A DNA stretch of 64,000 nucleotides from a virus: the IMG/VR virus record IMGVR_UViG_3300045988_056936, positions 1 to 64,000 of that record. The stretch is one strand, 5' to 3'. The notes beneath the pieces are model-generated. The model made no database searches and was not told the origin of the DNA. It saw only the letters and a program-made list of their open reading frames with translations. The translations under genes were made by a program, and so were the position numbers. This document shows, one piece after another, positions 284 to 38,546 of the stretch; the stretch's first letter is position 1, and each line of letters begins with the position of its first letter.

Positions 284-3200
284 ATCTTAAGATACTCTAT
301 TCAGAGTCCTGAACCCGACAATGGAATCGGCACCGCCGACGTCATAGCTAGAATGGAAATAGCCGAGACCCGCATAGCCGCCATTACCCGCGCTGCCGCC
401 CACCAGCAGCGTGCGAAGCGCTGTGCTTCTTGCGTTGCAGTAATGGTAATCGCAAATATAAGTAGTAGCACTTCCTCCAACAGCGGATGGAATTATTTCA
501 GCGGTTTCACCTAAGTCAAATGCCTTAATATAACCATCAGATGCTACTTCGTATCCTGCAACGGTTTTCTCTCCAACTACGTCGGTAAATTCCGATACGT
601 TAGTAGTTGTATAGACAGTGCTAATCTCATTAGCAGCTGCTCTCACTATAACTACTCCGTCCAGGTTAGTCCAAATATCTCCAAATGGATTATCAAAACC
701 TCTCCATCTTGGAACTTTAAATGTCTTAGTCGCTACTGTATCTGTTCCGTTTGTTGCAGTACACTCTGGAATAACTAAATCTTTGATTCCAGTAAAGTTA
801 CCAATATCGTTACAGTAACCACATGGAGTAAGAGGATAGGTTCCATTATATCCAGACCAACTTGTAGCAGAGTTACTCCAGTCTGTAACTCCAGGACCAA
901 GTCCTCCTTGACGATAACCATCAGAAGTAAGCTCGGCATTATATGCAGCCTGAGAGTTAAAGTTAGCATATTCTATTACATAGTTCCAGTAGAATATCCA
1001 TTTATAATATTCATAGCATAATAATTCAGAACCTGCATTTGTAGCATAAGTTCTCATATTAGCTCTAGAAACATTAGTTCTAGGTTTTCCTAAATCGCTT
1101 CTAAAAGCATCTTTGGTCTCAAGTTCAGTAGTTAGATACCCATCGAATTGTGCTCTATTTCCACCACCTCTAAATGCTTCTGTAGTATTGACCACAGACA
1201 CAGCTTTAGGGGTTGCTGACACAGTATTATCAACGGTATTTCTATATGCGTCAATTAATAGTTCTGGTATTTCTATCCATGAATCATCAAGCTTTACTAG
1301 AGAAATTCTAACCCATCTTTTATTTCCATTAGAGCCTGATTTACCATAAAATTTAGGAGTGTGGACTCTTACAGTTCCATCAGTTCCATCGAGCACAGAA
1401 GGAGTACTTCCATCTTCTTTGTAAGCCCAATCATCCGGATATAAATAGTAATTTACCACACCGTTATTTGCTACACATCCTCTGTAAGCGGACTAGATAG
1501 GGAGGGATTTATGTAATAGTGGGTTTCCTATTCTAGTAAGGATAGGAGAAGATACGGTAATATCCCATTCTACTCCATAAGAGTATAAGTCTACGTTACT
1601 GCTTAACTCTGTGACTTGTTTGCTTAGACTCTATTGTTTTTTTTGTAATTCTTCCCAAGCAGTATTAAGAGCATTAAATTGTTTCTCTAACTTAGTACTA
1701 GTATCTGCCCACTATGCAGTCCCATCTTCAGAAAAGGTTAAAATCTATCCAAGTGCTCCTCCAGCAGGTATGTGTTTATTTCCAGAAGTAGTTGGGTGTA
1801 CATAATTATTTGCATTATCTGCAATACCACTAAGTTTCTGTTTTTCAGTTTCTGTGTAATTAGCTTCAGAAAGTCCTTTTCCTAATTCTTTATCTACCTT
1901 ACTTTCCAACTCCGTTTTAGTAGCTAAACCGCTTATATCCTAGTGTTCCTTTAAATAATTTTCATCATTCTATAACTAAGACACTTTAGTTGGAATGGCA
2001 CTAGATTTTGCATATGTCTAATCTATAACATTTCCAGAGCCATCATAGGTAGCCTTTAAGTCATATACGGTTTCTCCAACCTTTATAGATTTGATTGCTG
2101 CCATATCATTGTATTATTAAAGTTTCATCAACTACATCGTGATCTATTCCCTCTATGGAAGCAGTTAGGTCCTCAACAGCCTTCTACAATTCTGCTTTAG
2201 TAGCATAGTTCTTGAGAACTTCCTAGTCTACTCCAGAGCCTCCTCCTATACTTCCTCCAACAACTTTTACTGGTTTGGCAGAACTCTTAAACTGTCCTTC
2301 AATATAAATTGTTCCCATATTGTTTAAAATATTAATTGTTCATTTTCTCCATCTACCTCTACACTAGAACCTGGCTATAAAGCGTCTATCTTTTTCTACA
2401 ATTCGGCTACGGCCTAGCTAATTAGTTCTTCTACCTCAGCTTTGGTGTAGTATCTCTCTATAAGATATTCGCTCCTAACATATCCAGTATCTTGTAAATC
2501 TTTTTCTCCATAGGTGCAATAATAAGTATCTTCTTCAGTCTTACTATTCTCAACTAGGTCATCATAATCAGCTTGTGGTAAGCATACAAGTTTTGGTACT
2601 TCTTCAGTAATAGCAACTTGCTTGCCTCCAGCAAATAGCCTGTTATCTTCTGTGGTAAGTTTAACAGAACTCTCAATAACTTGCTCAGTTCCTGTTTCCT
2701 CAAAAGGTTCTCCAGTTGTTCCCTATTGTACTTCTTTTTCTCCAATTTTCTAAATAGTAATATCAGAAGTTTCTACTGATGTAGATTTCAAAAGCTCAGT
2801 GCTAAATTCTTTAGCAGCAGCAGCCTAATCATCCTGATATTTTTTCTAGGTAACAAATATGAAATCATCATCTCCGGTTTCAGGAGAGTCTCCCCTTAAA
2901 CTTTCTTTTGTTACGTAATCTTCGGCTATCTAATCTGATAAATCAGATAATGACTATTGAGTAGCATAAGTAGACTGAGCATTTTCCTTAGTAAGAAATT
3001 TGTCATCAACCTGCTAAATAGTATAATAAGCCTTAATATCTTCTGTAGTAACGTAGTTTCCAAGTTTTTGCAAACCTTGAACTATTTCATCAATCTACTT
3101 CTTGGAGTAATAATTTGTAGCAACCCAGGACTGATATTGATTGGTAGTATGATAATTCTAATCCAAATATTCCTTAGTAATATAAACCTTTGCATCATTT

Positions 3201-5778
3201 GTGACGTCATATACATAGTAATATGTATCAGGCTCTACCGTCCCTTCCTCTACTAACTTTAGATACTCTTCTTCAGTTAATGTTACTAAGTTCGGAATAT
3301 CCGATTCAGTAGCAATCTAATCTTCACCTATAAATAATCCTTCAGACCTAACGTCTACTACTAGCTAGCTCTCTCCCTCTACTACAGGAGATTTTATCTA
3401 TCCAACAGTGATGCTTTCTAAGGAACCATTCCCATCTACCTTTAAAGTCTTATCTAGCTCATCTTGAATAGCCTATTGGTCTTCGTCATACTATTTCTTT
3501 GTAACAAAGACAAAATCATCTCCTTCCATTCCTTCTCCTCTAAGACTTTCTTTGGTAACAAATATGTCATCAGTTTCTTCCTTAGTATAATGGTTAGATA
3601 AGGCTTTAGATAACAAGGACTCTGGGTCCTCTAAATCTAGATCAGTTTTAGGGGCATAATTCTCAGTTAACTCTTCAAGGGTAGCATACTTGGAAAGGTT
3701 AGAGATTGTCTAGTCTAAATCCGTTCTAATCTGTACGACAGTAGTATTTAGAGCTTTCTATTTCAACTATTCCTCTATCTTTTTACCCCATTCTGCTGAT
3801 AAGTAAAACTAATCATCATCTAGGCTGTCTTCATATATATAATAATATGTTTCTGCATGAAGATATGTTTTATCTTCGTCTATAGGTTTAAAATCTTCTG
3901 TGGTATTTTTAGACCATTCCTTATATTCAGCCTCTGTACAGGTGATTATCTAAATAGATTCATAAGAAGCTTTCCAACCTTCTTTGTATTTAATCTTAGA
4001 CTTATCTACTAGCATATAAATATTTCCGTTATCTATATTTGAAACGGTCATGCCTTGATAAGCATATTTCTCCGGAATAGAATATAATTCGTCTAAATTA
4101 TCGACTACTGTTCTATTATCAAGAGGTTTAGGAGTTTCTACGGTTAAAGCAACACCTAATGTAGCATCACCTGTATATTTAAATGCCATTATTGTGATAA
4201 AGTAAAGTTAATTTGATGAGGCAATGCTGAAGAATAAGTATCCTTCTTAGTCCATACTTTATAAGGAAATCCATTTATCTATTCAGTAGAAGTTTCCCAT
4301 CCACTTAAATCAACATTTAGGTATCCTAGTCCTCCATCTACTGTAAATGAATTTAGCTAAGTATTACTTCCAGGTAATTTTATAATAGCCTTTCCACTTA
4401 ATGAAAATGTAATAATTCCAGAAGATTGTCCAAATGGAACAAGACTCTATTTGATTAAACTATCTGTATTACCAGAATACCAAGGGTAGGTAGCAGTCAC
4501 CTATGCTGTAGTTGATATTGAACCAGCCTCCACCCTCTTGTCTGTAACCTCTCCCTTGTTGTTAATAAGATATTCTCCAGCAGCATAATTTACGGTACCA
4601 GAATGCACATAAACACCGATAGAATCATATGTTTCAGATTCTACAGGAGAATCATTATAGGTAATAGTTTCTTCTCTACCAGTTTCCTCTCCAGCATCAT
4701 TTTTTATAAATGTTAAAGTAGGGGTAAGTAAAGCGGATCCTACCTCCACAATCTAAGAGGTGAAGCTATAATACAACTAAGGATAAACCAAATCTCTAAC
4801 AACAGTAGGAAATAATAGAGTGTCTATAATCTCATTAAACGGCTTTCCTTTCAATTTTTCAACTGTAGTTCCTTGAATAACAGTAGAAGTAGTATCATCT
4901 GGAAGTTCAGTTTGATAAGTAGCTATAGTTTCTAAACTTGTCTATATATTTGTGATATTCTCAGTATTAGAATCTACTTTAGAATCAGTGTTCTTCTAAG
5001 CTTCCTATACTCCCTTAACTTCTTCCTTTACCTCTGTTAGAGATGGTTCCAGGTCTTTTACATATATTCCAGGTAGAACTACTGTGGAAGGTTCTCCTTC
5101 CTCCTCTACTGGAGGAATTTCCTACTGAATCAGATGTATTGCATTATCCTCCTACTAAGATAGAATTACTTCTAGAGTATTATCATCCTTTATTTCTATG
5201 GTTTTGGAGTTTCTTAGACTATTAGTTATCCAATTCTAGATGTTTTTGTCAACATCTATATTTTTGATAGACTCATTAATATCCTCTATTGCCTCATTAA
5301 TCTAGGTTATTTTCTCAGAAAGATTGTTTATGCCAGTTCTGTTAGATTCAATTTCTTCTTCAAGTTCTTCCTTAAGTACAGTAATAGAAGTTCTGATATT
5401 ACTTATATCAACTTTTATTTCCTCTATTTCTTCTGTATTAGCTTCGTACTAACTTATAAAGAATAAAGCATAATCTAAGGCATCTTTTACAGTATTGATA
5501 TTCTCTGCAACATCACTAGTATAAGTCCATTTCTATTCTATGTACTATACTAAATCTTTCTAGGCTTCTATAGTTCCTTCTATATTTCCCCAAAGAAGAC
5601 TCTACTCATCAGCGATACCTAGATTCTTTCTAACCTTAGCTCTTTCTAATTCAGTTCTATATTCTCCAAGATAGTTGTTTCTTAGGAGAGGTATAGGTTC
5701 ACTTTTTATTAAATGTCCTTTCTTTCCACAAGGCTTTATATCAGCATTGCTTACCGAAGTATAAATAGGCTGTATCAT
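284..5778 (-). CDS. Tail fibre / receptor-binding protein, possibly more than one gene, TAG-recoded, with the DGR variable region at the C-terminus. The 5' boundary is uncertain (candidate ATG at 5776-5778)
   Basis: ORF-track fragment 287..1459. My manual translation upstream continues in frame through TAG codons at 1493, 1631, 1712 and 1745 with no TAA or TGA. It yields ...YTETEKQKLSGIADNANNYVHPTTSGNKHIPAGGALG(Q)ILTF..., a phage tail-fibre-like motif. The C-terminus carries VR1. Confidence 0.45.
314..410 (-). repeat. DGR variable repeat VR1 at the extreme 3' end of the tail-fibre gene. GC-rich island
   Basis: Differs from TR only at TR adenines. Encodes ...LVGGSAGNGGYAGLGYFHSSYDVGGADSIVGFRTLN, then RVS and a TAA stop at 284-286. 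Its GC content stands out in an AT-rich genome. Confidence 0.85.
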
Positions 5779-5779
5779 T

Positions 5780-8700
5780 ATGATTCAATAATTGCTATTT
5801 AATAAATTCGTGATTATCTAATTTTACGGGTAGGTTAATAAAACAAATTAGATTCAAAATATCCTAATAATCTGGTCTATATCCCTTTCTAACCCTTTTA
5901 AGGAAATCCTCATACCTTTTAATAGCCTTTCTTTTAAGAGCATCCACAACCTATACGTTTATGTTCATGGTGATTGTCACAGAATCCACCGCAAGTGCGG
6001 AACATTGCTAACAATCTTTCAGCTTCCATGAATTGTTTAAAGCCTATTAAATAATCTATAATGTTAAGTGTCATCCAGATAAAATCTCTTGCAAATATAT
6101 CTGCATCATGTTCTCTAGTTAGACACTTATTTAATAAAGAGTCAAAGAGTTTCTTACAGTAGTTAATATAACACTATTGCAGATTTCCTGTAAAGAATAC
6201 ATCTACCTTACATTTTTTGATAGTAGTTCCTTCTATATTTCTCTCAAGGATTTCTTTTACAGTACATTCCTCTAGCTCTCCATCTACTTCTTTATATAGT
6301 TTCTCTCCATCAGTTATATAGATAGTTTCATAATACTCCTTGTATTCATCAGATGAATTTTCATACCATTTCATATTAGGAAGAATTATGTGGTCTACTA
6401 CATAATATCCATCTTCTTTCACCTTAAATGTACAAGAGTCTAAATCCTCTGTATGGTCATTGAGAAGTACGTCTATCAAAGTAGCATCTCCTATACTAAC
6501 TTTTATGATAGTATTTAGGGTAGCACTTTCACTATACTTATAAGAATCATAGGAAGTTACTACCTCTAAATCTTCATCAATATACTATCCATATTCCTTT
6601 GAAAAGTCTTCAATAGTTATTTCCCCGTTAATCTGGGTATGTATATCAATACTAAATTCCATATTATAATAATTAAGACTCAGTAGTAGGCCATTGACCA
6701 TATTGAGCAGGAGTAGAAAATGGTTTCCACTTACCTTCTTGTCGTATACGTCTAGACATAAAAACTGAACTAAATGATAAACTAATATCTTGAGGATAGT
6801 CTGTCCATGTATATGACTAACCTTCAGGAGTCGGTGGTAGACTATTTAATTTACCAGCTGGTTTCCCATTCCAATAATAATTATAGTCATATGCCTTAGT
6901 TGGAGTAACAGTCGTTGTTTCATGTCCTTCTAAATCTACATATAGAGGATTTCCATCCTCATCTGTTTTCTGCTTATACTCAATAACTGGAGTTATTCCC
7001 TCAGTTCTAGTGTATATATTCTAGATAATAGTAGAAACATCGCTTGCCACAATCTCATAAATAGTAGTTCCCTGAGATTCGTCAGCTCCCTAGAAAGTAA
7101 ATTTAGTTCTTTTCCAGATGTATGGATTCTCTTCAGTTGGAAGTTCAAAAGTATCAGTCCACTATTTAGTAGATAATTTTATCTCAGATTCTTCAGCAGT
7201 ATCAGCAGGTAAGTAATGAATCTTAATAATAATATTATTTACCGCTTCACTAGAACCAGAAAGATCTGACACCTATTTAAATAGTTTCTTTAAATCTTCT
7301 TCCACATTTGATTTGGAACCAGAAGCATTACTAATAATTACTGAACCATCTGAAATAGGATAAATCTATTGCTAATCCTTATTATATACAATTGTTCCAG
7401 TTGCCATATTAATGTATTTGTCTTATTTTGTCATTATATGGATTTCCATCATGAAGCTAAGCTAACTCTATTTCAGTTCTCTTTTCTTCTATATCCATTT
7501 GTCTATCTTTATATGTAGAATCAGATTGAGCTTTGAGCCAGTTAACTTTATATTCTAACTACATTTTCTGCTACTCTAATCCTAATCTCTATTCATCCAA
7601 ACTTTCTATCTTCTACTAAGCTTTCTATAGTTCTTGCTGTAACTGCTGTGCCTATTGTGAAGTTTCTTCCAGTTTTTCCTATAGCTGCTATAGCTAATTG
7701 TTTTCTTCTTTACGAATCTATACTGCTTTCTTAACCTTATATTTAAGGTCTGTAAGACTCTTAGCAGTTAGTGCTTCAAATATGATGTCAGGATCCATTT
7801 GCTGACTTTTAACAAACTCTGGAATAATAGCTTTAATAGTTTGTAAATCTTCCATTACTTCAGAGCTAGAAGTTATATGGATGTCATAATCAGTAACCGT
7901 AAAATACTCTGGAAGCGCTGTAAATATCTGCTAGTATTTATCTCCAAGTATAATAGTACCAGTCAATCCTTTCTTATATGTTATTTTAGCCTAGTTTAGA
8001 CTATCCAATAATATCTCACAAGTGATTAGGTCCATCTACTAGAAATAATGCTTGGTTACTATGTAAGAGTTAGTAACACCTTGCTTAATATTAGTTACAG
8101 CATCGTGAGTTTCTATTCCATTTAATCTTTCTCTAAATACTCCAGTTATAGATGATGTAGTTTGTTCTACTGATTGAATTGCTAATTCAATAGCCTATAC
8201 AGCCTAAGCTTTTAAGGTATCATCAAATCCATTGTATATCTAGTTAGGTGCTTGCGCTCCATCATTTCTTCCCTCCTAAGTGGAATCAATCCACATGATA
8301 CCACCCTTCTTGTATGCTAACCATTTCTACACTCTTTCTGGCCATTTTACGCCTAGGTTAGTAGGAAGCAATGACATATCCATGATTACTCCAGCAGTAC
8401 CGCTGTTAGCTATCAGGTTGTCCCTATAATAATTTAACAAGTCATATCTATCCTGTAGATGTGCACACTTTAATATCAGAGAGTACGGTTGTTGGGAACG
8501 ATTTAAGAAATATACCCCATTCACAGACAAAGAGCAGAAATTAGGATTATCTTTCGACCTCATAACAGTCTTGTCTAGACCTCTCAGAATATATATTTCT
8601 TCTCCAATTCTAATGGTATTGTATCTCTACATTACAAAATCGTCATCAGTTTCTATCCACTCTACATCATAAACAGGAATTAACTAAAATCTATGAGCAC

Positions 8701-9480
8701 TATATTCATTATCTGGATATCCAGGAATAGTTTCATGATTCTAATCTTCGTTTACTATAGTACAAGTGTCACCATAAACTCTTCTATAAACTGCAGCTGA
8801 ATCATCAGCTCTCCATTCATCTTTTAGTCTTTTCAAATCTTCTCTAGAGATTTCTTTTCCGTATTTAGCTAATATCTAGCTTTTACTCATCCATTTTCTA
8901 ACCACAACTCTATACGAATTTCTAACATATGGAGATTCTGGATTCCTATCTACGAAAGTATTTAAAGGATTCAGAACTTCTATTTCTATGTTAGTTCCAG
9001 AAGATGATGATTTTACTCTGAAAAATGTATAGCCAGTAATTAATAAATCTGTAAGTAACTATCGGAGTTTAGTTATTAAATCGGTTTCTCTAGACTGCAT
9101 AATATAATGAATAATATTCTATGCAGCTATCTCATATTGAGAAATAAAAGACTAATCAATGTCTTGAATAATTTTATCTAACTAAGTCTTCACGGCTTTA
9201 TCTGTAATATCTTTTCCGTCGATAAATTTCAGAATAGAATTACTTAAATGGTCTCTAAGAAATTTAACTATTCCTTTAGTTATTTCTAACTATTTTTCTC
9301 TAGTGATATTACTAATGGTATCTGAATCCTTACAAGAAATCTTCGGAAGGATAGGGGTTCCTAGATATTCTCCTACTAGAGCATCTACATGCTTTTTTAG
9401 TAATGGTGTAAATTCTACAGAAGTAGGACTACCTATTCCGAAGTTTTCTTCCAGGTAACGAAACTATTCTGGGTCTCTCT
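5780..9480 (-). CDS. Block of TAG-recoded virion/morphogenesis genes, not individually delimited. The ORF track is fragmented here because amber codons are sense codons
   Basis: All six frames lack long ORFs although the region is clearly coding: codon-like composition, minus-strand ORF fragments 6174..6479 and 8327..8563, and frequent CTA triplets on plus, which are TAG on minus. Confidence 0.3.
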
Positions 9481-9777
9481 TTCCGTTATAGTAATTATAG
9501 GCTTTCTATAATTCGTATTTATCATATACAAGCTCCGCAATAGCCTCGTTCGTCTTGTCTATCAGTTCTTTTTCTTTCATAACATAAATTATGCTGTTCT
9601 GGAGGAAGTTTAGTTGCATTATAGTATTTAACTCTTTGTAACTTCCTACTTCTTAATTCTTCCTTTATAAATGGGAGAAATTCTTCATCAGGTAAATCAG
9701 CTATAATGACTAAAGGCATCTCTGACCTATCAAAGTTAAACGATACCTTATAACCAACTGGATCTAGGTTCTGAATT

Positions 9778-12138
9778 TCAAGCCCACCTACGTATTCCAT
9801 TTTGTACAAGTCTCTCATATAACCTAGGATCACTTGTTTCAATTCTGTATGGGTCATCGTATTCATTTTTTTGTATGTTAGTTTCAAAAGTCTTAGAAGT
9901 TGGTATAACCCCAAATCTTTTGATTCCTCTCTCGTCGTAATAATAACCATAATCTTGGAATTGTTCAACTTCTTTTTCAACAAGCACTGGCTATCTTCCT
10001 GACAATTCCTAGTCTGCCAATTCTGTCATTCCCACAGCTGCTACAATATCGAATTTACCTTTATTCTCATCATTATATCCAGTAAATTGGTCTAACATTT
10101 CTTCAAACCATATAGTATGACAGAAATCCTCAATAAAGGCTGCTGTCAAATCAGTATGTTGTTCTATAATAGTTTTGGTAGCGGGTGTTCCGTACTATTT
10201 AGTAGTTCCATTCTTGACGTCTGTTAGAGTAGCTCTAGGTCTTTTCATAAAGTAGTTTAAACAACCCTTTTCTCTAGCCCAGGTAATCATACCTACACGG
10301 GTAGCTTCTATGTTTATTCTACAATTATAGTATCTAGCTAAACACATAGCTATTTTATAGGCTTCTCTAATGTCATTAGGTCTGTCTTTATACATAGCAA
10401 CATACTACGGTTCGTTTAGACCAAATGCTCTTCTTTTTATAGTTATACAGAAATCAGAAGGATCTCTTGTTTCTTTTGAAGTTTGACTAGCTCCTATATC
10501 AATACCGTCTATTCCTGCAACATATAAATCATGCATTTCTTTGTACGCTGGAGATTCAAATTCTTCTCCCCTTTCCTCGGCTTCCTATCTAAGTTTATCC
10601 ATCTACTCTTTATACAAATCAGACCATACAGGATGTTCAAGTATTTTTACTTTTCCGTTAATATTAGGAATCCATTTAAAACCATCTATATTATCCTAGG
10701 TGTGTTTATTATTTTTATAGAAATAGTCTATGTATCCAGATTCTGGTCTTGGTCCTATTTTCTTAAGTCTTATATTAGCTAACTGGTCCGCAATAAGAAT
10801 CTTGTTGAACTTGTTAACACCTTCAAGATTAAATGCTTCTTCTGCATTCCAACATCGTTCAGCACACTTCTTTAGATAGTCATCTGGAACTGCTAATAAA
10901 TTGTCGCGCTCTTCCTATAGATACTTCTTATATTCTACTGTATTACATACACCTCTATGGTCCATGTATTCTGAATTTAGAGACTAGACAAAATATGGAA
11001 TGAAGAACCCACTTTCAATAGTAGTCCCATCCTGGGTATAATTATGTCTAAATGGAAGAACTTTGTAAGCTTTTGGATTATAATATATCTTCTTAAGACC
11101 TGCTAATGGAGCGCCCATATCACCACCAGTACCTCCAAATAACATTGTTCCACGAGGTTTACCTTGAACTTCACAAAGCTCTTGTCCCTACACTACAGCA
11201 GTATCTAGTCCAGGCCAAGATCCTGCTTCATCATATATTAATAAGTCAACACGGTCTCCACGAATATTAGATGCCTTAGCTCCGTTTATTCCAACTACTT
11301 CCGATTTAAATCCAACATCCTCAAACTGTCCGTTTACCTTAATCTGTTTACCGGACTTCTTTCTTAAGTCTTGGTCAATCAAACGTAGTTTGAAGAATCC
11401 TCCTCCTGTACAAGTATTCAAGAATGTTAAAGCATTATCAAACTTACTAAAAGTACCTTTAAGGAAGGTATCATTAAAACAGGTAATCATTACTCTGCTT
11501 CTTCTGATTACTGAATACATTCTTGCAGATAAGGATGCATTTATTTCAGAGAATCCAATAGAACGAGCTTTCATAAGAGCTGCGTGTTTATGCAGAACTC
11601 TAGCCATCTATAGATAATGAAAGAACATATAATGAGATGCGAAAAATATAGGAAAGTCACTACTTGTTCCTTCTCCAGATGCCTTGTTATCATCAATAAT
11701 AGGAAGCTAGTAGAAGTTTAGGAAGAAATAGTTATCTCCAGTAATTGTATAACCATTAACAGTCATTCCATATTTACATCTTCTATACTATTCCTTCCAA
11801 AACTCATTATATCTCTTACTATCTTTTAGATATGGACAATACTTTCCAGTTTTTCTATATACTTCTCTGGTCTCAGTAAACCAATCTGGGTCGAAATCAA
11901 GACCATGTGTTTCATCTATTGGTCTATATCCAGTTATTTCATAAGATAAAGTAGGGTCAAATACCTCTATCTTATCTCCTCTTTTTACATCCCAATAATC
12001 AGCATTTTTGCCTCTTTCCTCTCTTATCTTCTATACTAGTTCTCTAGCTTCTTTGGCATCCTCTTTTTGTTCTTTCTCTCTTACCTAATCTACTATATTC
12101 TAGATTTCTTCAGGTAATATTTTTTTCTTTCTAGGCAT
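9778..12138 (-). CDS. terL: Terminase large subunit (TAG-recoded)
   Basis: ORF fragments 11188..11607 (..LIYDEAG.. Walker-B-like terminase ATPase motif), 10195..10395 and 9778..9987 share one frame. ATG at 12138-12136 and TGA at 9778-9780. In-frame TAGs link the fragments. Confidence 0.55.
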
Positions 12139-13520
12139 AATTAAAAGTCTCCTGGGTCAAAGCCGTCTGTAGCTCCACCTCTTACAGTAGATTGTTCTGT
12201 AAGCTCTTTCTTAACCTGCTCTTCTAGTGTTACTAATTCTTCATGAACTTTATGAAGAGTAGCCATTTCTTTCATTACCTTTTCAGCTTGAAAGACGGGT
12301 TTGCCATTATTATCACGTTCATTTAAATCTACTATAGTATCAAAATAATCAATAAACTAGTCAGCTGCTCTTTTAGCTGCTTCTAGAAGTTTTATTGATT
12401 TGTTAGAATCCTACAATGCTCGGTATTTTCTACAGGCTTCCCTGAATAACGGGTCATTAAATTCGGATTCAGATAGTCCAGAGTCACTAATAGCTTCATC
12501 ATGTCTTTCATGTTCTGAATATTGGCTATAGGGACTCTTCCAATCAATAGCTAGATAAATGTAAGATAATTCTCTAGTTACTCGTTCCTTGTCAACAGAT
12601 TTATCCCTCTGTATCAAAGCCTTAAACTCTTTAACTAGAAGAAGCTCTGGTTCATTTATTTCTAACTATTTAGTTAAAGTGTTATAATTAAATACATTCA
12701 TACTCATCAATCATTAACATTAACATCTTTAATCTTTTTATTTCATTTTAGAACCGCATTTACTTACTTTCATTTTAGAACCACAAGCATCTTTCTTAGC
12801 ATACTTTGTTCTATCTGGAACCCATTTTCCATTTTTAAAGTTTCCCTTGTGTCCTCTATTTGCCATGACCTCCTAGTCATTATATTTATTAATAGATACA
12901 GAATCTCTGGATGCTTCATCCTTTGCAGATTTCATATCCTTTTTATACTAAGCTCTTCCAGCCTTGAACTTGTCAACTTCATTAGCTTTCTTAGTAACCT
13001 TAGTTCCTTTCTATGCTTTTTGGCAAGCTTTGCAGATTCTTCCTCCCTGTTTAAAATAAACAAGTTCCTCTCCTTCTGGGCATACTCCTTTTAATTTTTT
13101 ATAGTATTCTAGTTTAGCTCCAAGTCTAGCCATAACTCCGCCTTGCATCTTCTACATAAATTCTTGATACTTGGCTTTGATTCCATCTTCTCCAAGCTAC
13201 TCAGCGTAAGCCTATAAATCTTGCTCTGATTGTAGTTGTATCCCTTGTGCTTGGGCATCTTGTATCAAGTATGCCATGAATGCTTTCTGTAATTCTTCCT
13301 AATTAGCCATTACTCTTCTACTTTAATTAAATCCTTTGTATTAAATACTGCTTCCTGCATTAATCCAGAATCAGTAAACCATCTACATCTTAGTCCTCGT
13401 AATCCTTGGTTATCTTTAAATAAAGCTGCTTCTCTTCTTAGAACAAGCATAACTGGAGAGTGCATTACTTTACACTACCGTAAAGTAACACAATCCCCAG
13501 GCTTAAAATAAACTTTTTCA

Positions 13521-14123
13521 TCAATTGTTTCCATGCTTCAATTCGTCTCTTCTTTCAGTTAGTTTCTCATTAACTACAGCCATGATTCTATTCTCATTAA
13601 CTACTACAAATCCTAGTTTATAGAATGGAACCATACATTCACTAGCTATTGTATAAAATACAATATCTCCAGGCTTCAAGAACTCACACTTATGTCCTAC
13701 TTCTATCACAGTTCCTACCTTAATAAATTGTTGCTCTTCTTCAATTTCTCCAGTCTCATTAGATTTATAAGTAGGAGTAAATCCACCTAAATCAGTAATA
13801 AGACCGCTTTTAGTAGTTTTTATTTTTTGGAATGGGTTTTGTTCAAAGGGTTTAATTAATGCATACCCATACATCGGCATAATTTCAACTCCATTCATAT
13901 CGTTAGATAATGATTTAGCGTAATCCTCTAGTGCCTGATTATGTTTAGAGAATTTATCTTCTAACTCATCTACTGCGGTATTAAACTTCTCTTGTTTTTC
14001 TCTTAATAATGTTTGGTCTGCAGCCTCTCCATTTAAAATAAAATGTTCTCCCGTACCTTCCATTCCGGTTAATGATAGTGCTAGTTTTTCGTTACTGTTT
14101 AATTCTGTTCTTAAAGTTTCCAT
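13521..14123 (-). CDS. GroES-like co-chaperonin fold protein (T4 gp31-like?) with an N-terminal coiled-coil extension
   Basis: The C-terminal ...KSGLITDLGG...VGTVIEVG...LKPGDIVFY...IMAVVNE resembles the GroES/gp31 mobile-loop and beta-barrel pattern. Confidence 0.35.
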   Translation of the reverse strand: METLRTELNSNEKLALSLTGMEGTGEHFILNGEAADQTLLREKQEKFNTAVDELEDKFSKHNQALEDYAKSLSNDMNGVEIMPMYGYALIKPFEQNPFQKIKTTKSGLITDLGGFTPTYKSNETGEIEEEQQFIKVGTVIEVGHKCEFLKPGDIVFYTIASECMVPFYKLGFVVVNENRIMAVVNEKLTERRDELKHGNN

Positions 14124-14131
14124 AATTCATT

Positions 14132-14664
14132 TTACCATTTACATAAATCACAATGTTCATCTTCAATTCTTGTTTTATTCTCTAGTATACAACCACATTC
14201 ATCGCACACTTCCCCAACAGATGTTTGTAATTTATGGGAACAAGTGTCACAAATTTTTAATCTTTTGGTTGCCAAATCTTGATTTATTCCGAATATATTG
14301 AAATATATACTTTTCAATATTGTTAAAGGTTTAATAAATATTGCTTTAATCCATTTCCATATCATATCTTCTTCCTCCTTCTCGTTTATATTTTGGACAG
14401 TAAGTATATAATGCTTATCTGGTTTATATAATATAGGAGTTCCATAGATTACCATTTCCCTGCTGGGCAATGTTTCTTTTCGTTTGGAATCTTCTTCTCT
14501 AGTAAACATCCACATCCCTTTATATACCCTTCTTTAGGGCTTATACTTATATCATTATTCTTTGGATTTAGATACAAATGCCCATTACATAATCCATTAT
14601 CTTGGTCACATATTGGGCAGCGTCTACATATCTCAAATCTTTCTTCTATTTCCTCTAGTGTCAT
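14132..14664 (-). CDS. Two overlapping Cys-rich zinc-ribbon ORFs (CxxC...CxxC repeats). Possibly one frameshifted gene
   Basis: ORFs 14132..14515 and 14449..14664 overlap by 67 nt in different frames. Both carry CxxC pairs (CDTCSHK..CDECGC..CDLCKW; CRRCPICD..CNGH..CGC..HCPAG). Confidence 0.35.
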
Positions 14665-14666
14665 AA

Positions 14667-15581
14667 TTAATATTCAATACGTTGACGTTTTCTTTTATTT
14701 TCTGCCAATATAGATTCCTTCTTGTAGAAGGCTAGCATTTTTATAACCTCATCTTTTAGGTATGGCAAGTGATATACTGTCATATTGTCATTATGATCGA
14801 AATGTACCAAAACCAAATCCTCTATTTCAAACTCTGGATTTTTCTTTTGAATCATCCAAGCATAAGTACTTAATTGTAAAGTATAGTGCCAGTAATTAAC
14901 ATCATCTAAATTATTTAGAGGATATTTCATCTTAACAGAAGTTTTGGTTTTAGAATTGAAGAAACTCTTAGTTTCTATTTTCTTATTGGTCTTCCAGTCT
15001 CCTATAATTATCTTATTTCCCCTTTTAACTAATAAGTCAATCTGTCCTGCTATTCTTAGCTTTCCATCATCCGATACTCTAGATATTAAATACTCAGGAT
15101 ATACACCATTCTCTAAGTCTAATTCATTGTGGTCTTTTATACACTCAAACTTGCCACCTATTTGATATTTACTAAGGTCTATGTTCTGTTTCTTTTTATA
15201 GAAAGAGTTTTCCAAATCTGCATGGATTTTAGTTCCCCTCTCGCATGAGTTTCTATTCTCTAAATCCCAAGCATCTAAGATAGCTTGTTGCTCTTTATTA
15301 AACTCGTCTTCTGTAATGTTATGAAGTTCAAGTAGAACTTTATCAAATTTCTTAGTGTTCAACAAAGACTTTTTTTCTATAGCCCAATCTTCTTTAGGTA
15401 AGAGTTTCTCTAGTGCTTTATATGCTGACCAGAACTCCTTATCAAATGGTTGGGTGAAAGAATGAATTAAAGTCGTTACAGATATAAACTTCTGCTCTGG
15501 CTTTGTAACATCATAATAAATATGAGCTTCTTCCTCAAAAGCTATGTTCCCATTTTGTTTTGTAATTTTACTTTTGTCCAT
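14667..15581 (-). CDS. PD-(D/E)XK-superfamily nuclease (RecB/Cas4/YqaJ-like exonuclease)
   Basis: C-terminal ...GQIDLLVKRGNKIIIGDWKTNKK matches the D..(D/E)xK core. The N-terminal H..Y motif is also present. Confidence 0.5.
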   Translation of the reverse strand: MDKSKITKQNGNIAFEEEAHIYYDVTKPEQKFISVTTLIHSFTQPFDKEFWSAYKALEKLLPKEDWAIEKKSLLNTKKFDKVLLELHNITEDEFNKEQQAILDAWDLENRNSCERGTKIHADLENSFYKKKQNIDLSKYQIGGKFECIKDHNELDLENGVYPEYLISRVSDDGKLRIAGQIDLLVKRGNKIIIGDWKTNKKIETKSFFNSKTKTSVKMKYPLNNLDDVNYWHYTLQLSTYAWMIQKKNPEFEIEDLVLVHFDHNDNMTVYHLPYLKDEVIKMLAFYKKESILAENKRKRQRIEY

Positions 15582-15695
15582 TAGTCATAATTCATTTAAT
15601 CATTTATCACATTTATCTATATTTATTTGATACTTTTCAAGTATATTAATATTCTTTGTAAGATACAAATCAATAAATAATACATTATATTAAAA

Positions 15696-16037
15696 ATGTC
15701 TAACAGTAAGAAAATTACAACATTTGGGTGTCCAATTTTCAAAAATGGGTCGGGCATTCACATTAAAGAGAAGAACAGAGGCAAATTTACAGCATCTGCC
15801 AAGGCAGCAGGAGAATCTGTACAAGAACACGCTAAGCATGTACTAAACAATCCTAACGCTACCCCTCTTTAGAAGAAGCGAGCTAATTTTGCTAGAAATG
15901 CTTCTAAATGGAAACACGAAGATGGGGCTAAGATACATAAACCGAGTGGACATAGGTCTATTCTAGATAATGGATGGATTCCTACTACTAGATTAAAGAA
16001 GGGAACTTATGGATTTATTAAAACTAAGAAACGATGA
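15696..16037 (+). CDS. Small plus-strand gene embedded in the minus block, TAG-recoded (MSNSKKITTFGCPIFKNGSGIHIKEK...)
   Basis: ATG at 15696. My manual translation reads through in-frame TAGs and ends at TGA near 16037. It is not called by the ORF track because of the amber codons. Confidence 0.3.
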
Positions 16038-16310
16038 AAAACATTATTAAGTGCATTAAAGAGATTGTATTAAGAATATATCTATATTTACTATTTATAT
16101 TTAAAAAGTAACATGGACTATAACAAAGCAACTTTACACGCGGCAACAGGTCGTACTCTCTTACTTCCTGGATGGAGAGGATATTTTTATTGGGATTATT
16201 CTAAAAAGGAATTGAATTTCAGAAACGGAGATTATCATTTAGATAATAAATAGCTTAGAGAAAAGGGAGTCATGGAGAGAACTGATTGGTACTATATTAT
16301 ATAACAAAAT

Positions 16311-16350
16311 AGGCGAGCCTAGAGATTAGGTTCGCCTATTTTTATTTAAC
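16311..16350 (+). terminator. Rho-independent terminator-like hairpin (taggcga...tcgccta followed by a T-run)
   Basis: A 7-bp perfect stem followed by TTTTTATTT, immediately after the small plus-strand ORFs at 15696-16310. Confidence 0.45.
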
Positions 16351-17504
16351 ATTATACTTTGTATCATAAGTACAAGTGATTCTATTTATACCATCCTCCC
16401 ACCAAGGTTTATCTGATGGCTATCTAATACCACTTGGGATGGTTATTGTAGGAGTAGAAGTTTCTACTATAGCATCTACTATTTTAAATAATGTATCCAA
16501 GTCAAATTCTGGAAATTCATTATGTAAGTTTGTCAATGTCTTTTTAAAGTCTATCATATCCCTCAAATGTATTATCAATTATTGCTTTTTCTAGTGTAGT
16601 GTCTTTATATAGTCCATTTTTAATTAGATTTCTAACTGAATTGTCAACTACATTCCATATATCAATCAGTAATGATTTATTCTCCGGAACACTTCTAAGT
16701 GTACTTTCTAAATATCCGGCTTTTATCATATTTATTAGTTGACCGTTAATAAAGACTTCAAATTTAAATTCTTTATCCATATATTTTAGTATATTACACT
16801 TAGTCTATTTAATTCATCTAGGTAATCTAGAAACCATTGTTCATTTTGTTTTCCTTCTTCTGCAACAATCTCAATTAAAGATTCTGCTGCTAGGAGTATA
16901 GTTTCAGATAACTCTTTTAAATTTGGCTTAGTTAGTTCATTGTATTTATCAGTCAAGTTTAACATAATCCATCCAGTCTTTTATATATGATTTACATTCC
17001 TCTAAATCTGGATAGATACTTGCTATAGTGCAACCTGTTTTTGGATTCCTAAAATGATGGAGTTTTGCTTCCTCATTTTTCTCCTCTTCTATATTTCTAT
17101 TTAATGTTCTATTCCAGTAGTTGTATTTCTCATCTAGCATTTCCTTATCACACTCCTCCAATATTTTCATATTGGGATTACTCATTATTTTGTCATACTT
17201 TCTTTTTAAATTAGAAACTTTGACAACATCATTACCATTCAATACGACTGCACACTGTTTCATTTCACTACTTTATAAGTACATATCTTACCTATCTGCT
17301 TTCCTTGAATACTTATTTGTGGAAGAAAGTAGCAGGCTTGATTCTCAAATTCTTGAGGTACAAATATGTAATCAAATCTACATCCAACTACCTTATCGCA
17401 AACTTTATTCCAATCATCTCCCTCTTCAATAATAAGGGTCTTAGCTCCTGTTGGAGTTACAGCATAATTCTCATTTAAATTTATCATAACTATTAATTTT
17501 GGCG

Positions 17505-17576
17505 TTGCCCTACTAGGATTCGAACCCAGACTAAATGATTTAGAGTCATCTGTGCTGACCATTACACCATAGGGCA
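17505..17576 (-). tRNA. Amber-suppressor tRNA, anticodon CUA, tRNA-Gln-derived
   Basis: Manual cloverleaf: acceptor TGCCCTA/TAGGGCA (U1-A72) with discriminator A; D-arm GGTGTAATGGTC; anticodon stem GATGA/TCATT with loop CTCTAAA (U33, CUA, A37); T-arm CTGGG-TTCGAAT-CCTAG. The D-arm and acceptor are near-identical to tRNA-Gln(UUG) at 32536. It sits at the 5' head of the TAG-rich minus-strand block. Confidence 0.8.
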
Positions 17577-18240
17577 GTATTTATTTCTCTTTTAGAGATT
17601 TATTCTCCGCTGCCAATTTCTCTAGTTCTTTCCTTAGCTGTTCGTTTTCGTGAAATAAAGCCTACATGGTTGCATTTACATTAGCAAGGAGTATTCTTAT
17701 TTGAGCTATTTGTTCATACATATGCTTTCAGTTGTTCTATTTTCATAGTTACCACATTAGATAATGCCATTCTGAATTTAGTAATTCCAGCTCTTACTGA
17801 TTCCAATTTTCCACTTTCCAAACATTCTTGAATTTTATTTAGTTCGGATTCCCCTAGATATTCGCAGACATCTATAAATAAATCATCATCTAAAGATTCT
17901 AAGTATTTCTGGAATTTGCCTACTTCTTCATTAGCTAGACAGCTTTCCTCTTTCTATCTCTCATAAGATATTAATAAGAATAAAGAATCATCTGTAGATT
18001 CCGCTTTAATGGTTAGACCATTACTTGATAGATAATACTCCTAGTTCTTATTAATTGCATCAACGAGATTCTTAAACTCGTCCTAATTTAGTAATGTTTC
18101 TAAGTCTGTAATCATAATTGTTTCTTTTTTAGTTATATACAACAATACCTTCTGAAAAGTTAAATACAAAGTTAAAAAATTCTAATTCTAATATTATACA
18201 TATTTCATTTAGTTATCCGCAAATGGGTACAGGTACTTTA

Positions 18241-19975: not shown

Positions 19976-20045
19976 TCCCCATTAGTATAATGCATTGCGC
20001 CTTCCTCTAAAGAAGGAGATTCTGGTTCAAACCCGGAGTGGGGAA
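19976..20045 (+). tRNA. Second CUA-anticodon (amber-suppressor) tRNA, Gln-like acceptor, atypical 3-bp D-stem
   Basis: Acceptor TCCCCAT/GTGGGGA (U1-A72, U7·G66) with discriminator A; anticodon stem CCTTC/GAAGG with loop CTCTAAA (CUA); T-arm TCTGG-TTCAAAC-CCGGA. The D-arm is weak (GTA/TGC). Confidence 0.45.
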
Positions 20046-20851
20046 CTTAGTATTTGAGGACTACAGCTACTTGTAGGCTCTATTTGCTGTTAAGGACTAT
20101 AATGGGTACGCCCAGAGACTATGTAATTGTTGTGAAACAATTCAAAGGAGAGTGGCACAGGAAGGTCTTTTGATAGTGTTCATTTTTTATCCCAACAGCG
20201 GTGGGGATATTTTTAAAACTCAGCCTAGGAGAGTATAAAATACCATCTGATGAGACTAGGACGAAATATACTTTGTATATAATGGTATAACTAATTAAAA
20301 CTAAGAAGATGAAAAAGAGATATATTATTCCAGAGGAACTGCATTTTGCTTCTGCTAGCTGTGGATTTGAATGTAATAATTATGACGAGGTATTAGCGTT
20401 TGCTGGATATTTTCTATCTATCGGGTGTTCCTTTGAGGTTTCGGATCTCTATATCGAACCAAAGGGGAATTTAATTCCTTTAAAACAGTCGAACGAAGAA
20501 AGGGATGTATGGGAATATCTCATGCTAGAGTTTTAATAACTAAAACATAAATATTATGAGCAAATTGACAAAAAAGAAAACAGAAACTCTCTATGCCAAA
20601 ATGGTAAGAGAAGAAAAAGCTATGCAAATTGCTGCTCAATATGGTCTTCAATATGAAGTACTTCAGTCTATTAAGGCTGGATGTACTCCAGAAGAAGCCT
20701 TACGTGAATGGGATTTAGTATAGCTTTCTTTAAAAAACTTAATAACTTTCCAAGTCATTGAGGACACCAGTTTCTTATATGTTACGCATGAGAGGTCGAA
20801 CATACTCCTTGCGATATAAGTTTTAGGTGTAAAATGCAATACTAGTTATAT

Positions 20852-21187: not shown

Positions 21188-21200
21188 CTCGACTTCGCGA

Positions 21201-21315: not shown

Positions 21316-22507
21316 TATGGAAGACAAAGTAAAAGAATTTAGAGACAAAAATCCTATACTAGACTTCCTAGCAGGATTTATTCCTGGAGTTGGAGAAGCA
21401 TAGGACGCACATGATTTTATTCATGCCGCAAAAGATAAAGATTATATAAGTATGGGTTTAGCAGCTACAGGCTTAATTATTCCAGGAATCACAGGAGGGC
21501 AAATAAAGAAACTTTCAAACGTTTTAATAAAGAAAGGTTGGCGAGAAACGAAGGGAAGAATATTTGACCCATAGGGAGTTGAATACATTAGGAATAAAGA
21601 AGGAAAACTTCAAAGCTTATCATCTTACAGACAGACTCAAGCCGTAGAAAAAAGAATTGAGGAAAATAAGTCTAAGGCTAAAGCCAGATCTAATCAACAA
21701 AAGAAAGTAATCAAAGAGCATAACGAAGAAGCAGAAAAGTTTAGACTTCGAACGGGACTTGATTATTCTTTAGAAAATTGGCAATCACTAGCTTCAGGAC
21801 ATAAGATGTCACAAGAGGAAATAGACTTATTCACCAAAAAAGCTTTTCCCTAGTTTGTTCAAACTTATAATGAACTAATTAAGTCTGGTAAGCTGATAAG
21901 ATAGCCTAATGGAAGATATACTGCTAATGGAAGGAAGAATCTAAGCAACATAGAAACTATGTATTATATCTAGGCAAACTCTCCTCAAGGTAAGAATCTT
22001 TTATATAATGGTATCACAATGAGGTCTGGAATTAAGGATAAACATAGTTTTGAAACCGGAAAAAATAACCAGAATTATGAGAAATGGTTCAGTTCTAATC
22101 CAAGAGGAGCAAAAGCTTACGGAGACTTTGCAATCTGGGGACTACCAGTTAAACCTTCTATAATTAATCCCAACTGGGATGACTAGATTAGGCTTATAAA
22201 AAGGCAGAAAGCTAATCCATCTTCTAATAATTGGGCAGGAGGTCCAATAGGTGCTTATTTAAGCAAGGATAGAGCACGTTCTGTAAATATGTCTGAAGGT
22301 GTTCTTACAGACGATTATGCAACATAGGTTCTTAATTCTGACCCTATAAAAGGAGTATTTACTATAGTAGGTCCAGATATTCCTGTAAAATCTGTATTTG
22401 GAGGATCTGGAATGTACGATGTTAGTCCCAAAAAGCTATATAATCCATTCTTATCTCTTACCATGATGGGAATGCTAGGTTATAAACATTTAAATAAAGA
22501 TGAATAA
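21316..22507 (+). CDS. Hypothetical protein of about 395 aa, TAG-recoded (about 7 in-frame TAGs), TAA stop
   Basis: My manual translation from ATG 21316 runs about 395 codons with no TAA or TGA and ends ...MLGYKHLNKDE* overlapping the ATG of ORF 22500. It is invisible to the stop-to-stop ORF track. Confidence 0.45.
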
Positions 22508-36032: not shown

Positions 36033-37343
36033 CTACACTAATTTATTTGCCTATGGACAGAAAATTAAGAAGAGAGCTTTCTAAAAGAAAGTGGATTTCT
36101 AGAGCTAAAAAAGTTTATAACTCTTGCGGGAAGTTCTATATCCCGGTAAACGGAATTAAAGCCAGTGTTCAGTATAATGTTCCTATTTTCAGAAATAGAG
36201 CACTGAGAATTTGTGAATCAATTACGGATTTTCTTAATGATTCCAAGTATGCCAAAATGCTTAAGAATTGCACTTCTCCCTACAGAAGTAAGATGATGCA
36301 GTACGAATATAAGAAAGAGAATAGAAAAGATAGATATAAGGCTAAGAAAGATATCCAGGAAGGTATTCAGGAATATGAGTCCAGGGACAATCTTTCATGC
36401 TCATCATGTATATTCTATGATGGAGGTCTATGCGAGAAAGGATTATTAACGACAGATGATTGTCCAGAATATTGGGATTAATTATGGATAAATATATTAA
36501 TGGAAATTTAATAAAGAGGATACTAGTTTTTAAAACTAGAAAACATCCAGAATGGAAGCATAGAATAGCGGATACCAAATTTTTATTCTGGAAAAGGCAT
36601 ATTGATTATTGGTATCTTCTAGACCCATGCTTTGGGACTTACTCTGAGAAAGGGATGCTCGAATCAATTAGTAAGAGAACATCCTTCTACAAGGATGGAA
36701 TAGTATACCAGAAGCCGCATATTATTCTAGAGTTCTCTGAGAGACATGATGAGTCTATCTATTTTGATAGTGATGAGGAAATGGAAGGCTGGCTTGAGTC
36801 TTTCAGGCAAGAATTTGGAAACCATTTATTTATATAGAATAATACCTTTATCCCAGTTTAGAGCTTAGCTCAAGTAGTGAAGAACAGTAGCTATTGGTTA
36901 AAACGAGGTGGAGTGCCAGACGAAAGACTGGAATTAACATAGTTTAACTTTGAATCTCCGACTATGCGGAGTATCATTATGGCAGAATTGATTTTCTTAC
37001 CTAATGGAAAATGCGACTTGAAGTTCCACGCTCATCCCAAGAATTTCAAAAGGGTTGAGAAGTTCAACTACAAAAAGAACTTTTTCAAGGTTTACGTTGA
37101 CCGAAACGACAGCGTTTACGAGATAACTCGCTGCGAGGTGGTTACATGGAAAACCATAGAGAAAGGCAAGAAGAAATTTAACGTCCCTGACGAGGTGAAA
37201 GAAACTCGTGATGCTCACTTGTTTGACAAAATCAAGGGGAATCCGTTCAAAATCGCTATTACTAAGGTAGCTGGCGAGATTGATATGCAGGAGCTGTTAT
37301 CTGAGTAATTCGTTTAGGAGAGTATCGTAAAACTCTCCATTAT

Positions 37344-37919: not shown

Positions 37920-38546
37920 ATGGCATATATTTATTGCATTACAAATTTAATTAATAGCAAGCGATACGTAGGAAAAACTACTACTTCTATAGAAGAGCGC
38001 TGGAAGGAACATTGTTATGACTTTTAGAAAGAAAGATGCAACAAAAGACCTTTATATGATGCCATGAATAAGTATGGTGTTGAGAACTTTATGATAGAGG
38101 AATTGGAATATGTAGATAGTAACTCTGAATTATCTGAAAGAGAAATCTATTGGATAAAAGAGCTAGGAACTTATGGTTCTAATGGGTACAATGCCTCTAA
38201 AGGAGGAGATGGCACTATTCTATACAATCATAGTGAAATTGTAGAATTAGCTAGATTGGGATATACTAGTTCTTAGATACAAGAAAAAATAGGGTGCTGT
38301 AAAGACACTATTTACAAAGTTTTGAAGGCAAATAATATAAAAATTAGAAAAAGTAACGCAAAGTTAATTGCTTAGTATGACTTAGCAGGTAATTTTATAC
38401 AGGTATTCTTTGGTTCCAGAGAAGCTTAGGAATGGTTAATTAATAACGGAATTACTGACAATAAATCTGCATAGAGTCATATTATAGGATGCTGTAAGAA
38501 TAAAACCAAATCATAGTATGGCTATATTTGGAAATATCTTCCAGAG
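37920..38546 (+). CDS. GIY-YIG homing endonuclease (I-TevI/Seg-like), TAG-recoded (6 in-frame TAGs), free-standing in the tRNA array
   Basis: MAYIYCITNLINSKRYVGKTT..IEERWKEH.. (GIY-YIG). CYDF(TAG)KERCNKRPLYDAMNKYGVENF aligns with I-TevI HLQNAWNKYGEDNF. ORFs 37764..38027 and 38064..38276 are in the same frame, joined through TAG. TAA at 38544. Confidence 0.7.

Follow-up and report, generated by a model that had tools for sequence, protein, structure and literature searches.

The 64-kb stretch of DNA analysed here, below called the window (positions 1 to 64,000 of the virus record IMGVR_UViG_3300045988_056936 in IMG/VR; 35.7% GC), is very probably part of a Zeta-type crAss-like gut phage with a genome of ~188 kb, which reads the codon UAG (TAG in the DNA) as glutamine in a subset of its genes. 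By the codon and profile comparisons presented below, TAG would be a sense codon for glutamine in roughly one in four window genes, and the other genes are readable under both codes. The in-frame TAGs, 139 in total, are spread over 15 genes, which terminate with TAA or TGA only. Nine of these genes lie at 287-13310, and the six others at 15696-16037, 17714-18115, 21317-22507, 25206-25667, 36484-37308 and 37920-38555. Two tRNA genes with the anticodon CUA, here named Sup1 and Sup2, flank the junction of two divergent gene blocks. Recoding of TAG to glutamine had already been proposed in a first-pass annotation made from the letters of the sequence; the source of the mechanism, that is the two tRNA(CUA) genes detected by ARAGORN, was absent from it.

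Genes with and without in-frame TAG

With TAA and TGA as the only stops, nine abutting genes of 188-786 codons emerge on the minus strand between 287 and 13310, and they carry 116 in-frame TAGs in total (2-32 each). Eight of these genes terminate with TAA and one with TGA, in agreement with the terminal stops given in the first-pass annotation. No TAA or TGA interrupts the nine frames over 4,163 codons, and the fragments of each gene share one frame with only TAG between them. At a TAA plus TGA frequency of 0.047 per codon (all frames), the probability of finding 529-786 codons without either stop is 9e-12 to 4e-17 per gene. Open reading frames (ORFs) of at least 300 aa cover a fraction of 0.118 of positions 1-18000 under table 11 and 0.652 with TAG as a sense codon. 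The comparison of coding density under tables 11, 15 and 4, as suggested by the first-pass annotation, thus revealed an about five-fold increase under table 15 only. Reassignment of TGA or TAA was rejected, since neither raised the coverage by long ORFs (0.124 with TGA and 0.123 with TAA as sense codon). Full-length structural homologues were found as well: the PHROG profile matches of the tail protein, the portal protein and the terminase large subunit (TerL) run end to end across many TAG positions. Annotation with the standard bacterial code splits terminase, portal, tail and other virion genes of the window into fragments, and therefore table 15 is needed for gene calling in the TAG-rich region.

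For comparison, relatives with and without recoding were available. L001 (on a 195.7-kb contig; 79% identity in TerL) and L002 (192-kb contig; 74%) are recoded, and their genes do not yield their proteins under table 11. MT835539 (L007) is itself TAG-recoded and has 45 TAGs in its portal gene. MT835470 (L003) uses the standard code and shows 42% identity in TerL and 51% in the portal protein. The leftmost of the nine minus-strand genes (287..2104; 605 codons, 8 in-frame TAGs, TAA end) encodes a tail protein, which matches phrog_5302 with residues 133-601 (E=1.8e-84) and has N-terminal PHROG matches over residues 11-136. The first-pass annotation had read through TAGs at 1493-5, 1631-3, 1712-4 and 1745-7 upstream of the ORF 287..1459. 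All four are indeed in frame with this minus-strand ORF, the frame is open without TAA or TGA up to 2113, and the quoted tail-fibre peptide HIPAGGALG*ILTFSEDGTA*WADTSTKLEKQF was found in it. The next two genes encode virion-block proteins of unknown function, 2324..4189 (621 codons, 22 TAGs, TAA end) with homologues in L001, L002 and L007 at 44% identity and 4189..5778 (529 codons, 19 TAGs, TAA end) with homologues in L001 (57%), L002, L007 and L003. They are followed by the virion-block genes 5934..6701 (255 codons, 2 TAGs, TAA end; 80% identity to L001 and 31% to the standard-code L003) and 6673..7407 (244 codons, 7 TAGs, TAA end; homologues in L001 and L002). The portal gene at 7409..9619 contains most TAGs (736 codons, 32 TAGs, TAA end); its product matches phrog_6547 (E=2.3e-42) and is 51% identical to the TAG-free L003 portal over 729 aa. 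The terminase fragments at 9778..12138, which the first-pass annotation had assigned to one frame, make up a TerL gene of 786 codons with 16 TAGs and a TGA end, and residues 93-712 of the product match profile positions 77-725 of the 758 in phrog_6681 (E=5e-60). Upstream of TerL are located 12141..12707 (188 codons, 3 TAGs, TAA end; phrog_16390) and 12738..13310 for a small basic protein (190 codons, 7 TAGs, TAA end), the last gene of the TAG-rich leftward block.

The glutamine-type codons of these nine genes are TAG (116), CAA (70) and CAG (30), so that TAG accounts for 116/216 (54%). By contrast, 43 plus-strand genes with 8,890 codons contain 252 CAA or CAG codons and not a single TAG. No TAG is present in genes for replication and metabolism or in genes of the tRNA block. 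Long housekeeping-type genes had been described as TAG-free from the beginning, and this holds for the SPFH/flotillin-like gene (30013-31986), NAMPT (54956-56506), a helicase (61162-62448) and the 671-aa ORF (45561-47576), and equally for two AAA ATPases, an OmpA-like protein and RNase H. Some of these TAG-free genes point to auxiliary functions: an OmpA-like outer-membrane beta-barrel protein (52062-53078, plus strand), the SPFH/flotillin-like protein of 657 aa (plus strand) and NAMPT (plus strand), which has a PRTase-like gene beside it. No more than three genes on the coding strand (42211-42885, 33129-33395 and 45213-45479) have TAG as their first in-frame stop, and in each of them a TAA or TGA follows within 5-22 codons. 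The TAG that ends the 224 otherwise TAG-free codons of 42211-42885 (plus strand) lies 3 nt before the tRNA-Glu gene at 42889-42961; reading through it leads 5 codons into that tRNA gene and then to TAA.

The first-pass annotation had considered TAG a sense codon throughout the minus-strand block up to 17600. This is true for 287-13310 and also for 17714-18115, but not for the region 13521-17263, where the minus-strand genes 13521-14123, 14132-14515, 14667-15581 (a PD-(D/E)XK nuclease) and 16949-17263, located between Sup1 and the TAG-rich block, are free of TAG. The gene at 17714..18115 (minus strand; 133 codons, 3 TAGs, TGA end) is the first leftward gene and lies upstream of Sup1. It is conserved in L001, L002 and L004-L006, and in L001 TAG or CAA-type residues occur at related sites. 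Because homology identifies 18434-18880 on the plus strand as the real gene there, the gene blocks diverge between 18115 and 18434.

In selected rightward genes TAG is a sense codon as well, as had been claimed for three of the following five. The small conserved gene at 15696..16037 (plus strand; 113 codons, 1 TAG, TGA end) shares its TAG site with L001, whereas the L003 protein (84% identity) reads ATPLQKKRANFARNA with Q at this site. The gene at 21317..22507 (plus strand; 396 codons, 7 TAGs, TAA end; function unknown) has no Pfam or PHROG match. For 36484..37308 (plus strand; 274 codons, 3 TAGs; function unknown) readthrough of TAG is likely, with 156 more codons lacking TAA and TGA past the first TAG. 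Two endonuclease genes complete the set. One (25206..25667, plus strand; 153 codons, 3 TAGs, no CAA or CAG) encodes a PD-(D/E)XK endonuclease, whose match to PF11645 (E=2.8e-20, residues 9-136) covers all three TAGs. The other (37920..38555, plus strand; 6 TAGs, TAA end) is GIY-YIG homing-endonuclease-like and lies next to tRNA-Cys, and its PF01541 domain (E=1.3e-12) crosses a TAG. Both sit in the tRNA array, beside tRNA-Lys and an 86-nt tRNA-Cys, and their neighbours are TAG-free. Probably, they are homing endonucleases that depend on the suppressor.

Probable glutamine at TAG and the suppressor tRNAs

Among 120 aligned TerL homologues, 12 of the 16 TAG columns have Q as the majority residue. 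Gaps facing TAG, which the first-pass annotation had named as an argument against recoding, are restricted to 1 of the 1,920 cells. Nevertheless, a protein-only alignment is possibly circular, as Q may have been filled in at TAG in the database entries of recoded relatives, and for this reason codon-level tests on DNA were made. In the DNA-level alignments genuine CAA and CAG codons are the commonest non-TAG partners of the window TAGs; in near relatives, the window TAGs face TAG (69), CAA (33), AAA (11) and others. A 20-way likelihood test was applied to codon-level alignments with five relatives, using an empirical substitution table built from the non-TAG columns of the same alignments. Glutamine was the best of the 20 amino acids in all four comparisons, with differences in log-likelihood (lnL) of 26-87: it led by 87 for the near relatives, by 31 (28 in the other analysis) for MT835470 and by 26 for MT835539. 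In MT835470 the homologous genes are free of TAG, and CAA or CAG stands opposite 22/61 window TAGs, compared to 14/57 for the window's own CAA and CAG codons. These data support the proposed reading of TAG as glutamine (code 15).

Sup1 (17504..17576, minus strand) is a tRNA-Gln-like tRNA with a canonical cloverleaf (Rfam tRNA score 66.3 bits), and Sup2 (19976..20046, plus strand; 43.9 bits) is 71 nt long and has a short D-arm. Both were called by ARAGORN, which labels any tRNA with a CUA anticodon 'tRNA-Pyl' by default. The closest paralogue of Sup1 is the phage tRNA-Gln(UUG) at 32536..32608 (plus strand; ARAGORN, comparison). The two are 71% identical, with identical D-arm, U1-A72, G2-C71 and A73, and by these features Sup1 clearly appears to be derived from a tRNA-Gln. 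In L001, L002, L004, L005 and L006 a Sup1 orthologue occupies the same place. The acceptor, anticodon and T stems of these orthologues have changed in a compensatory manner, and the anticodon loop CUCUAAA is invariant. Sup2 shares this anticodon loop, has orthologues in L001 and L015 with compensatory changes in the acceptor and anticodon stems, and is identical in sequence in 7 IMG/VR contigs. The standard-code L003 has no tRNA, and hence no tRNA(CUA), in the corresponding 22 kb. A further tRNA(CUA) was seen at 328-402 (minus strand) of L025 (IMGVR_UViG_3300045988_052671, a 101-kb crAss-like contig). Its 5′ half (TGCCCTATGGTGTAATGGT.AGCACAG) is near-identical to that of Sup1, which suggests that the tRNA-Gln-derived suppressor may be shared or exchanged between distant crAss-like lineages. 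ARAGORN found 27 tRNA genes in the window, and Rfam adds one tRNA and a transfer-messenger RNA (tmRNA). The additional tRNA (39623-39695, plus strand; 39.5 bits), which was missed by ARAGORN, overlaps a spurious ORF with 2 TAGs at 39496-39756.

Possible purpose of the recoding and alternative explanations

In the mechanism we propose, the glutamine-charging system of the host would charge the suppressor tRNAs, which would then prevail over release factor 1 at UAG. At the start of infection the TAG-free genes would be translated with the standard code of the host, and the virion genes would yield truncated products until the suppressor tRNA has built up. The change of code would thereby gate late genes at the post-transcriptional level, which corresponds to the model put forward by Borges et al. 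(10.1101/2021.08.26.457843).

Several observations speak against this picture or narrow it. Among the 40 ORFs scanned in the 64-kb window of the ~188-kb genome no release factor, no glutaminyl-tRNA or other aminoacyl-tRNA synthetase (aaRS) and no amidotransferase was found. In relatives, K, E, T or S stands opposite TAG at many sites, which is normal for surface glutamine positions, and the assignment to glutamine is thereby a statistical one and not made site by site. The TAG-containing gene 17714-18115 lies upstream of Sup1, and the endonuclease genes with TAG are located inside the rightward TAG-free block; TAG is therefore partitioned by gene and not by clean block or transcription unit. 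Furthermore, the labels "early" and "late" were taken from gene function and orientation alone. A scan for sigma-70 promoters in 13000-21500 retrieved 34 sites, compared to 36.9 expected from shuffled sequences, and is uninformative on transcription units.

The recoding could be real and yet have a purpose other than the timing of late genes, an explanation that we consider the less probable one but that retains appreciable weight. Readthrough of host UAG codons could sabotage translation or defence of the host, and an anti-defence role was proposed by Yutin et al. (PMC7886860); alternatively, an AT-rich genome could neutrally capture a suppressor, whereupon TAG drifts into tolerant, highly expressed genes. 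The gene-wise partition, including the TAG gene upstream of Sup1, fits to such explanations, and relatives described in the Zeta paper (PMC12386605) keep tRNA(CUA) without any in-frame TAG. A tmRNA of the phage itself could handle readthrough products. On the other hand, the contrast of 0/252 to 116/216 is far too sharp for drift alone, and TAG follows functional gene class as it does in other recoded phage clades (10.1101/2021.08.26.457843). Timing and the other purposes are not mutually exclusive and may coexist. The tmRNA (Rfam RF00023; 41312-41875, plus strand; 66.2 bits, E 1e-23) is located directly before tRNA-Ile. With 564 nt compared to 374 positions of the model it probably carries insertions, and its tRNA-like ends are recognisable. 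Read by eye, a plausible tag frame is ...AEIAPVRMAA, which would end with TAA and not with TAG. ARAGORN in tmRNA mode made no call on 41201-42000 despite the 66 bits in Rfam.

RNA elements in the surroundings of Sup2 raise the question of whether the suppressor is controlled at the RNA level. A RAGATH-14 RNA (Rfam RF03145; 19753-19946, plus strand; 183 bits; gathering score 149) stops 30 nt short of Sup2, and a RAGATH-1 hammerhead ribozyme (20217-20286, plus strand; 68.8 bits) is located 170 nt downstream of it. A pistol ribozyme (21187-21255, plus strand; 63.3 bits) follows 1.1 kb downstream of Sup2, between 20834-21187 and the gene with 7 TAGs at 21317-22507. Both ribozyme matches are located in the leader region of the rightward genes. 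These three elements and the two tRNAs are all that a permissive Rfam scan of 17200-21400 revealed. It detected no HDV-like ribozyme, although Rfam may lack a model for the theta type. It is conceivable, though improbable, that Sup2 is made within a structured precursor consisting of RAGATH-14, tRNA(CUA), the 170-nt spacer and the hammerhead, and that this RNA cassette, not transcription alone, times the appearance of active suppressor. A scan of IMG/VR with the RAGATH-14 core yielded 24 contigs, and all nine large ones have a Sup2-type tRNA(CUA) 66-86 nt downstream on the same strand. As 8 of the 9 are near-identical to the window or close relatives of it, the pairing may reflect synteny rather than coupling. 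In 66-101-kb crAss-like contigs RAGATH-14 occurs without an adjacent tRNA, and in L001 Sup2 is present and RAGATH-14 is not detectable. If the assumption were true, the cassette would parallel the HDV-like theta-ribozyme tRNA units on the basis of hammerhead and RAGATH elements and would provide the first function for RAGATH-14, for which a literature search found no papers.

Three side observations may be added. A hammerhead is also present in the relative L005 at 654-740. At 33573-33980 (plus strand) a protein of 135 aa is encoded that matches PF08302 with E 5e-8 (tRNA_lig_CPD, a cyclic phosphodiesterase domain known from tRNA ligase). Cleavage by ribozymes or anticodon nucleases leaves 2′,3′-cyclic phosphate ends, which a protein of this kind could resolve, but to tie it to the nearby ribozymes is speculation. 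A non-coding stretch of 92 nt (19126-19217, plus strand) is 92% identical to unannotated DNA of cr272_1 and cr273_1, which are otherwise very distant crAss-like phages from pig gut. It has no match in Rfam, and the predicted fold of 19116-19227 is not more stable than those of shuffled sequences (z = -1.27).

That UAG is decoded as another amino acid (pyrrolysine, Lys, Glu, Tyr, Trp, Leu or Ser) is very unlikely. The label 'tRNA-Pyl' for both tRNAs would fit to pyrrolysine but merely follows from the CUA anticodon; K, E, T and S are frequent opposite TAG in relatives, and for Sup2 the window contains no clear isoacceptor relative. Glutamine, however, is ahead of the next-best amino acid in each of the four comparisons, and Sup1 and Sup2, with 71-73 nt, do not have the long variable arm that bacterial tRNAs for Ser, Leu and Tyr possess. 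The architecture of Sup1 is canonical (GG in the D-loop, TTCGAAT in the T-loop, 5-bp anticodon stem), similar to the phage tRNA-Gln(UUG) and unlike tRNA-Pyl. Pyrrolysine decoding, which is marked by an atypical tRNA-Pyl architecture together with pylS and pylBCD, does not agree with these features, and no match to PylS or another Pyl gene was found among the window ORFs scanned against Pfam.

Equally small is the chance that UAG decoding is supplied by the host, either by a host with UAG as sense codon or by a host suppressor, with the phage tRNAs being accessory. Borges et al. (10.1101/2021.08.26.457843) could detect a suppressor tRNA in only ~40% of TAG-recoded phages, which would be in line with a supply from outside. 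In the phage studied here and in all five recoded relatives, however, tRNA(CUA) is kept with compensatory evolution, while it is missing from the homologous region of the standard-code relative. Moreover, about three-quarters of the window genes avoid TAG entirely, which would be needless in a recoded host, and the hosts predicted for the group in the literature are standard-code Bacteroidota/Bacillota (10.1101/2021.08.26.457843, PMC12386605).

That TAG is still a stop codon and that the fragments represent pseudogenes, assembly or sequencing errors or intron-split genes has a negligible probability and is already refuted by the sequence data: table 11 ORFs do cover just 12-35% of 1-18000, and this phage group is rich in introns and inteins (as in the TerL genes of P0003 and MT835539 described below), but the frames are broken by TAG alone, TAA/TGA-free runs of this length are not expected by chance, full-length profile matches cross the TAGs, and in independent assemblies (L001, L002, L004-L007) the TAG sites of the same genes differ in part.

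Relatives and comparison with known recoded phages

TerL, translated with readthrough of TAG, matches 121 of 50,697 phage records in a tblastn search. Uncultured crAss-like, Bacteroides, Azobacteroides and Flavobacterium phages are matched at 24-29% identity, and the identity is 42-45% for two unannotated contigs from the human gut. Together with the profiles phrog_6681 and phrog_6547 these matches place TerL and portal in the crAss-like lineage, as judged by similarity and not by phylogeny. In the same phage collection a megablast search with 1-20000 retrieved a single match of 92 nt and no close relative. Full-length relatives of TerL with 73-93% identity were found in a large protein database, on contigs of up to 195 kb, and over shared loci eight IMG/VR contigs of 130-189 kb (six of them 186-189 kb) agree with the window at 96-98.7% identity. 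According to these TerL relatives and near-identical loci, the window represents a crAss-like phage of ~188 kb that is present in public collections. The first-pass annotation had compared the recoding to crAss-like and Lak phages. The likeness to crAss-like phages was borne out and probably extends to the Zeta type, whereas a Lak megaphage (genome >500 kb, Lak-type terminase) is ruled out by the crAss-like TerL relatives and the size of the related contigs (180-195 kb).

The Zeta group as described by Yutin et al. 2021 (PMC7886860) has genomes of 145-192 kb and many tRNAs including suppressors. It is mostly the late genes that use TAG for Gln or TGA for Trp, the code can switch from one close relative to the next, and the density of introns and inteins is high. 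A proposed Zeta family (PMC12386605, 2025) contains amber-suppressing members of 176-189 kb (e.g. cthgQ11 with 188,977 bp and ctoVY1 with 183,062 bp) with 23-27 tRNAs, 34.5-35.1% GC and a CTA suppressor. Judged feature by feature, the window matches these descriptions. TerL and portal are of the Crassvirales type, TAG occurs in structural genes and TerL, the GC content is ~35%, the contigs of the relatives comprise 182-195 kb, and the window has 27-28 tRNAs including tRNA(CUA). Homing endonucleases are found among the tRNA genes. The code switches within the clade, as MT835470 uses the standard code and MT835539 and other relatives are TAG-recoded. Inteins or introns interrupt TerL in relatives: the TerL homologue P0003 (1131 aa, 93% identity) contains an intein with Hom_end, Hom_end_hint and LAGLIDADG_3 domains, and TerL of MT835539 (12001-16365) matches in three pieces over 4.3 kb. 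Compared to these, TerL of the window itself is uninterrupted. Nothing of substance differs from the Zeta group; the window has two tRNA(CUA) genes, and the published table gives the anticodon type only.

Phages carrying self-cleaving ribozymes near suppressor tRNAs are known as well. Kienbeck et al. 2024 (PMC10879173) described theta (HDV-like) ribozymes that adjoin phage suppressor tRNAs. The window likewise combines self-cleaving ribozymes with a nearby suppressor tRNA in a recoded gut phage, but its ribozymes are not HDV-like and do not abut the 3′ end of the tRNA.

The clades of Borges et al. (Lak, Garnet, Agate, Jade etc.; 10.1101/2021.08.26.457843) resemble the window in having early genes compatible with the standard code and recoded structural genes, a phage-encoded suppressor tRNA, a low GC content and depletion of TAG as terminator. 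They differ from it in that the window is crAss-like by its TerL relatives, with ~188 kb, and not Lak, that no "code-change module" of RF2 and aaRS was found among its scanned ORFs, and that no lysis genes were identified in it. Peters et al. 2022 (PMC9523058) proved by metaproteomics that TAG is translated as Gln in crAss-like phages. Their phages from the human gut share this reading with the window; the proof there is at the protein level, and the window is known from comparison of sequences alone. Amber recoding of late genes in Zeta-type crAss-like phages has thus already been published, and the finding for the window, which appears correct, is not new and changes nothing in the published picture of these phages. 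It adds one more clean example of a phage genome split between two genetic codes, with an unusually sharp contrast between the two gene sets and two suppressor tRNAs.

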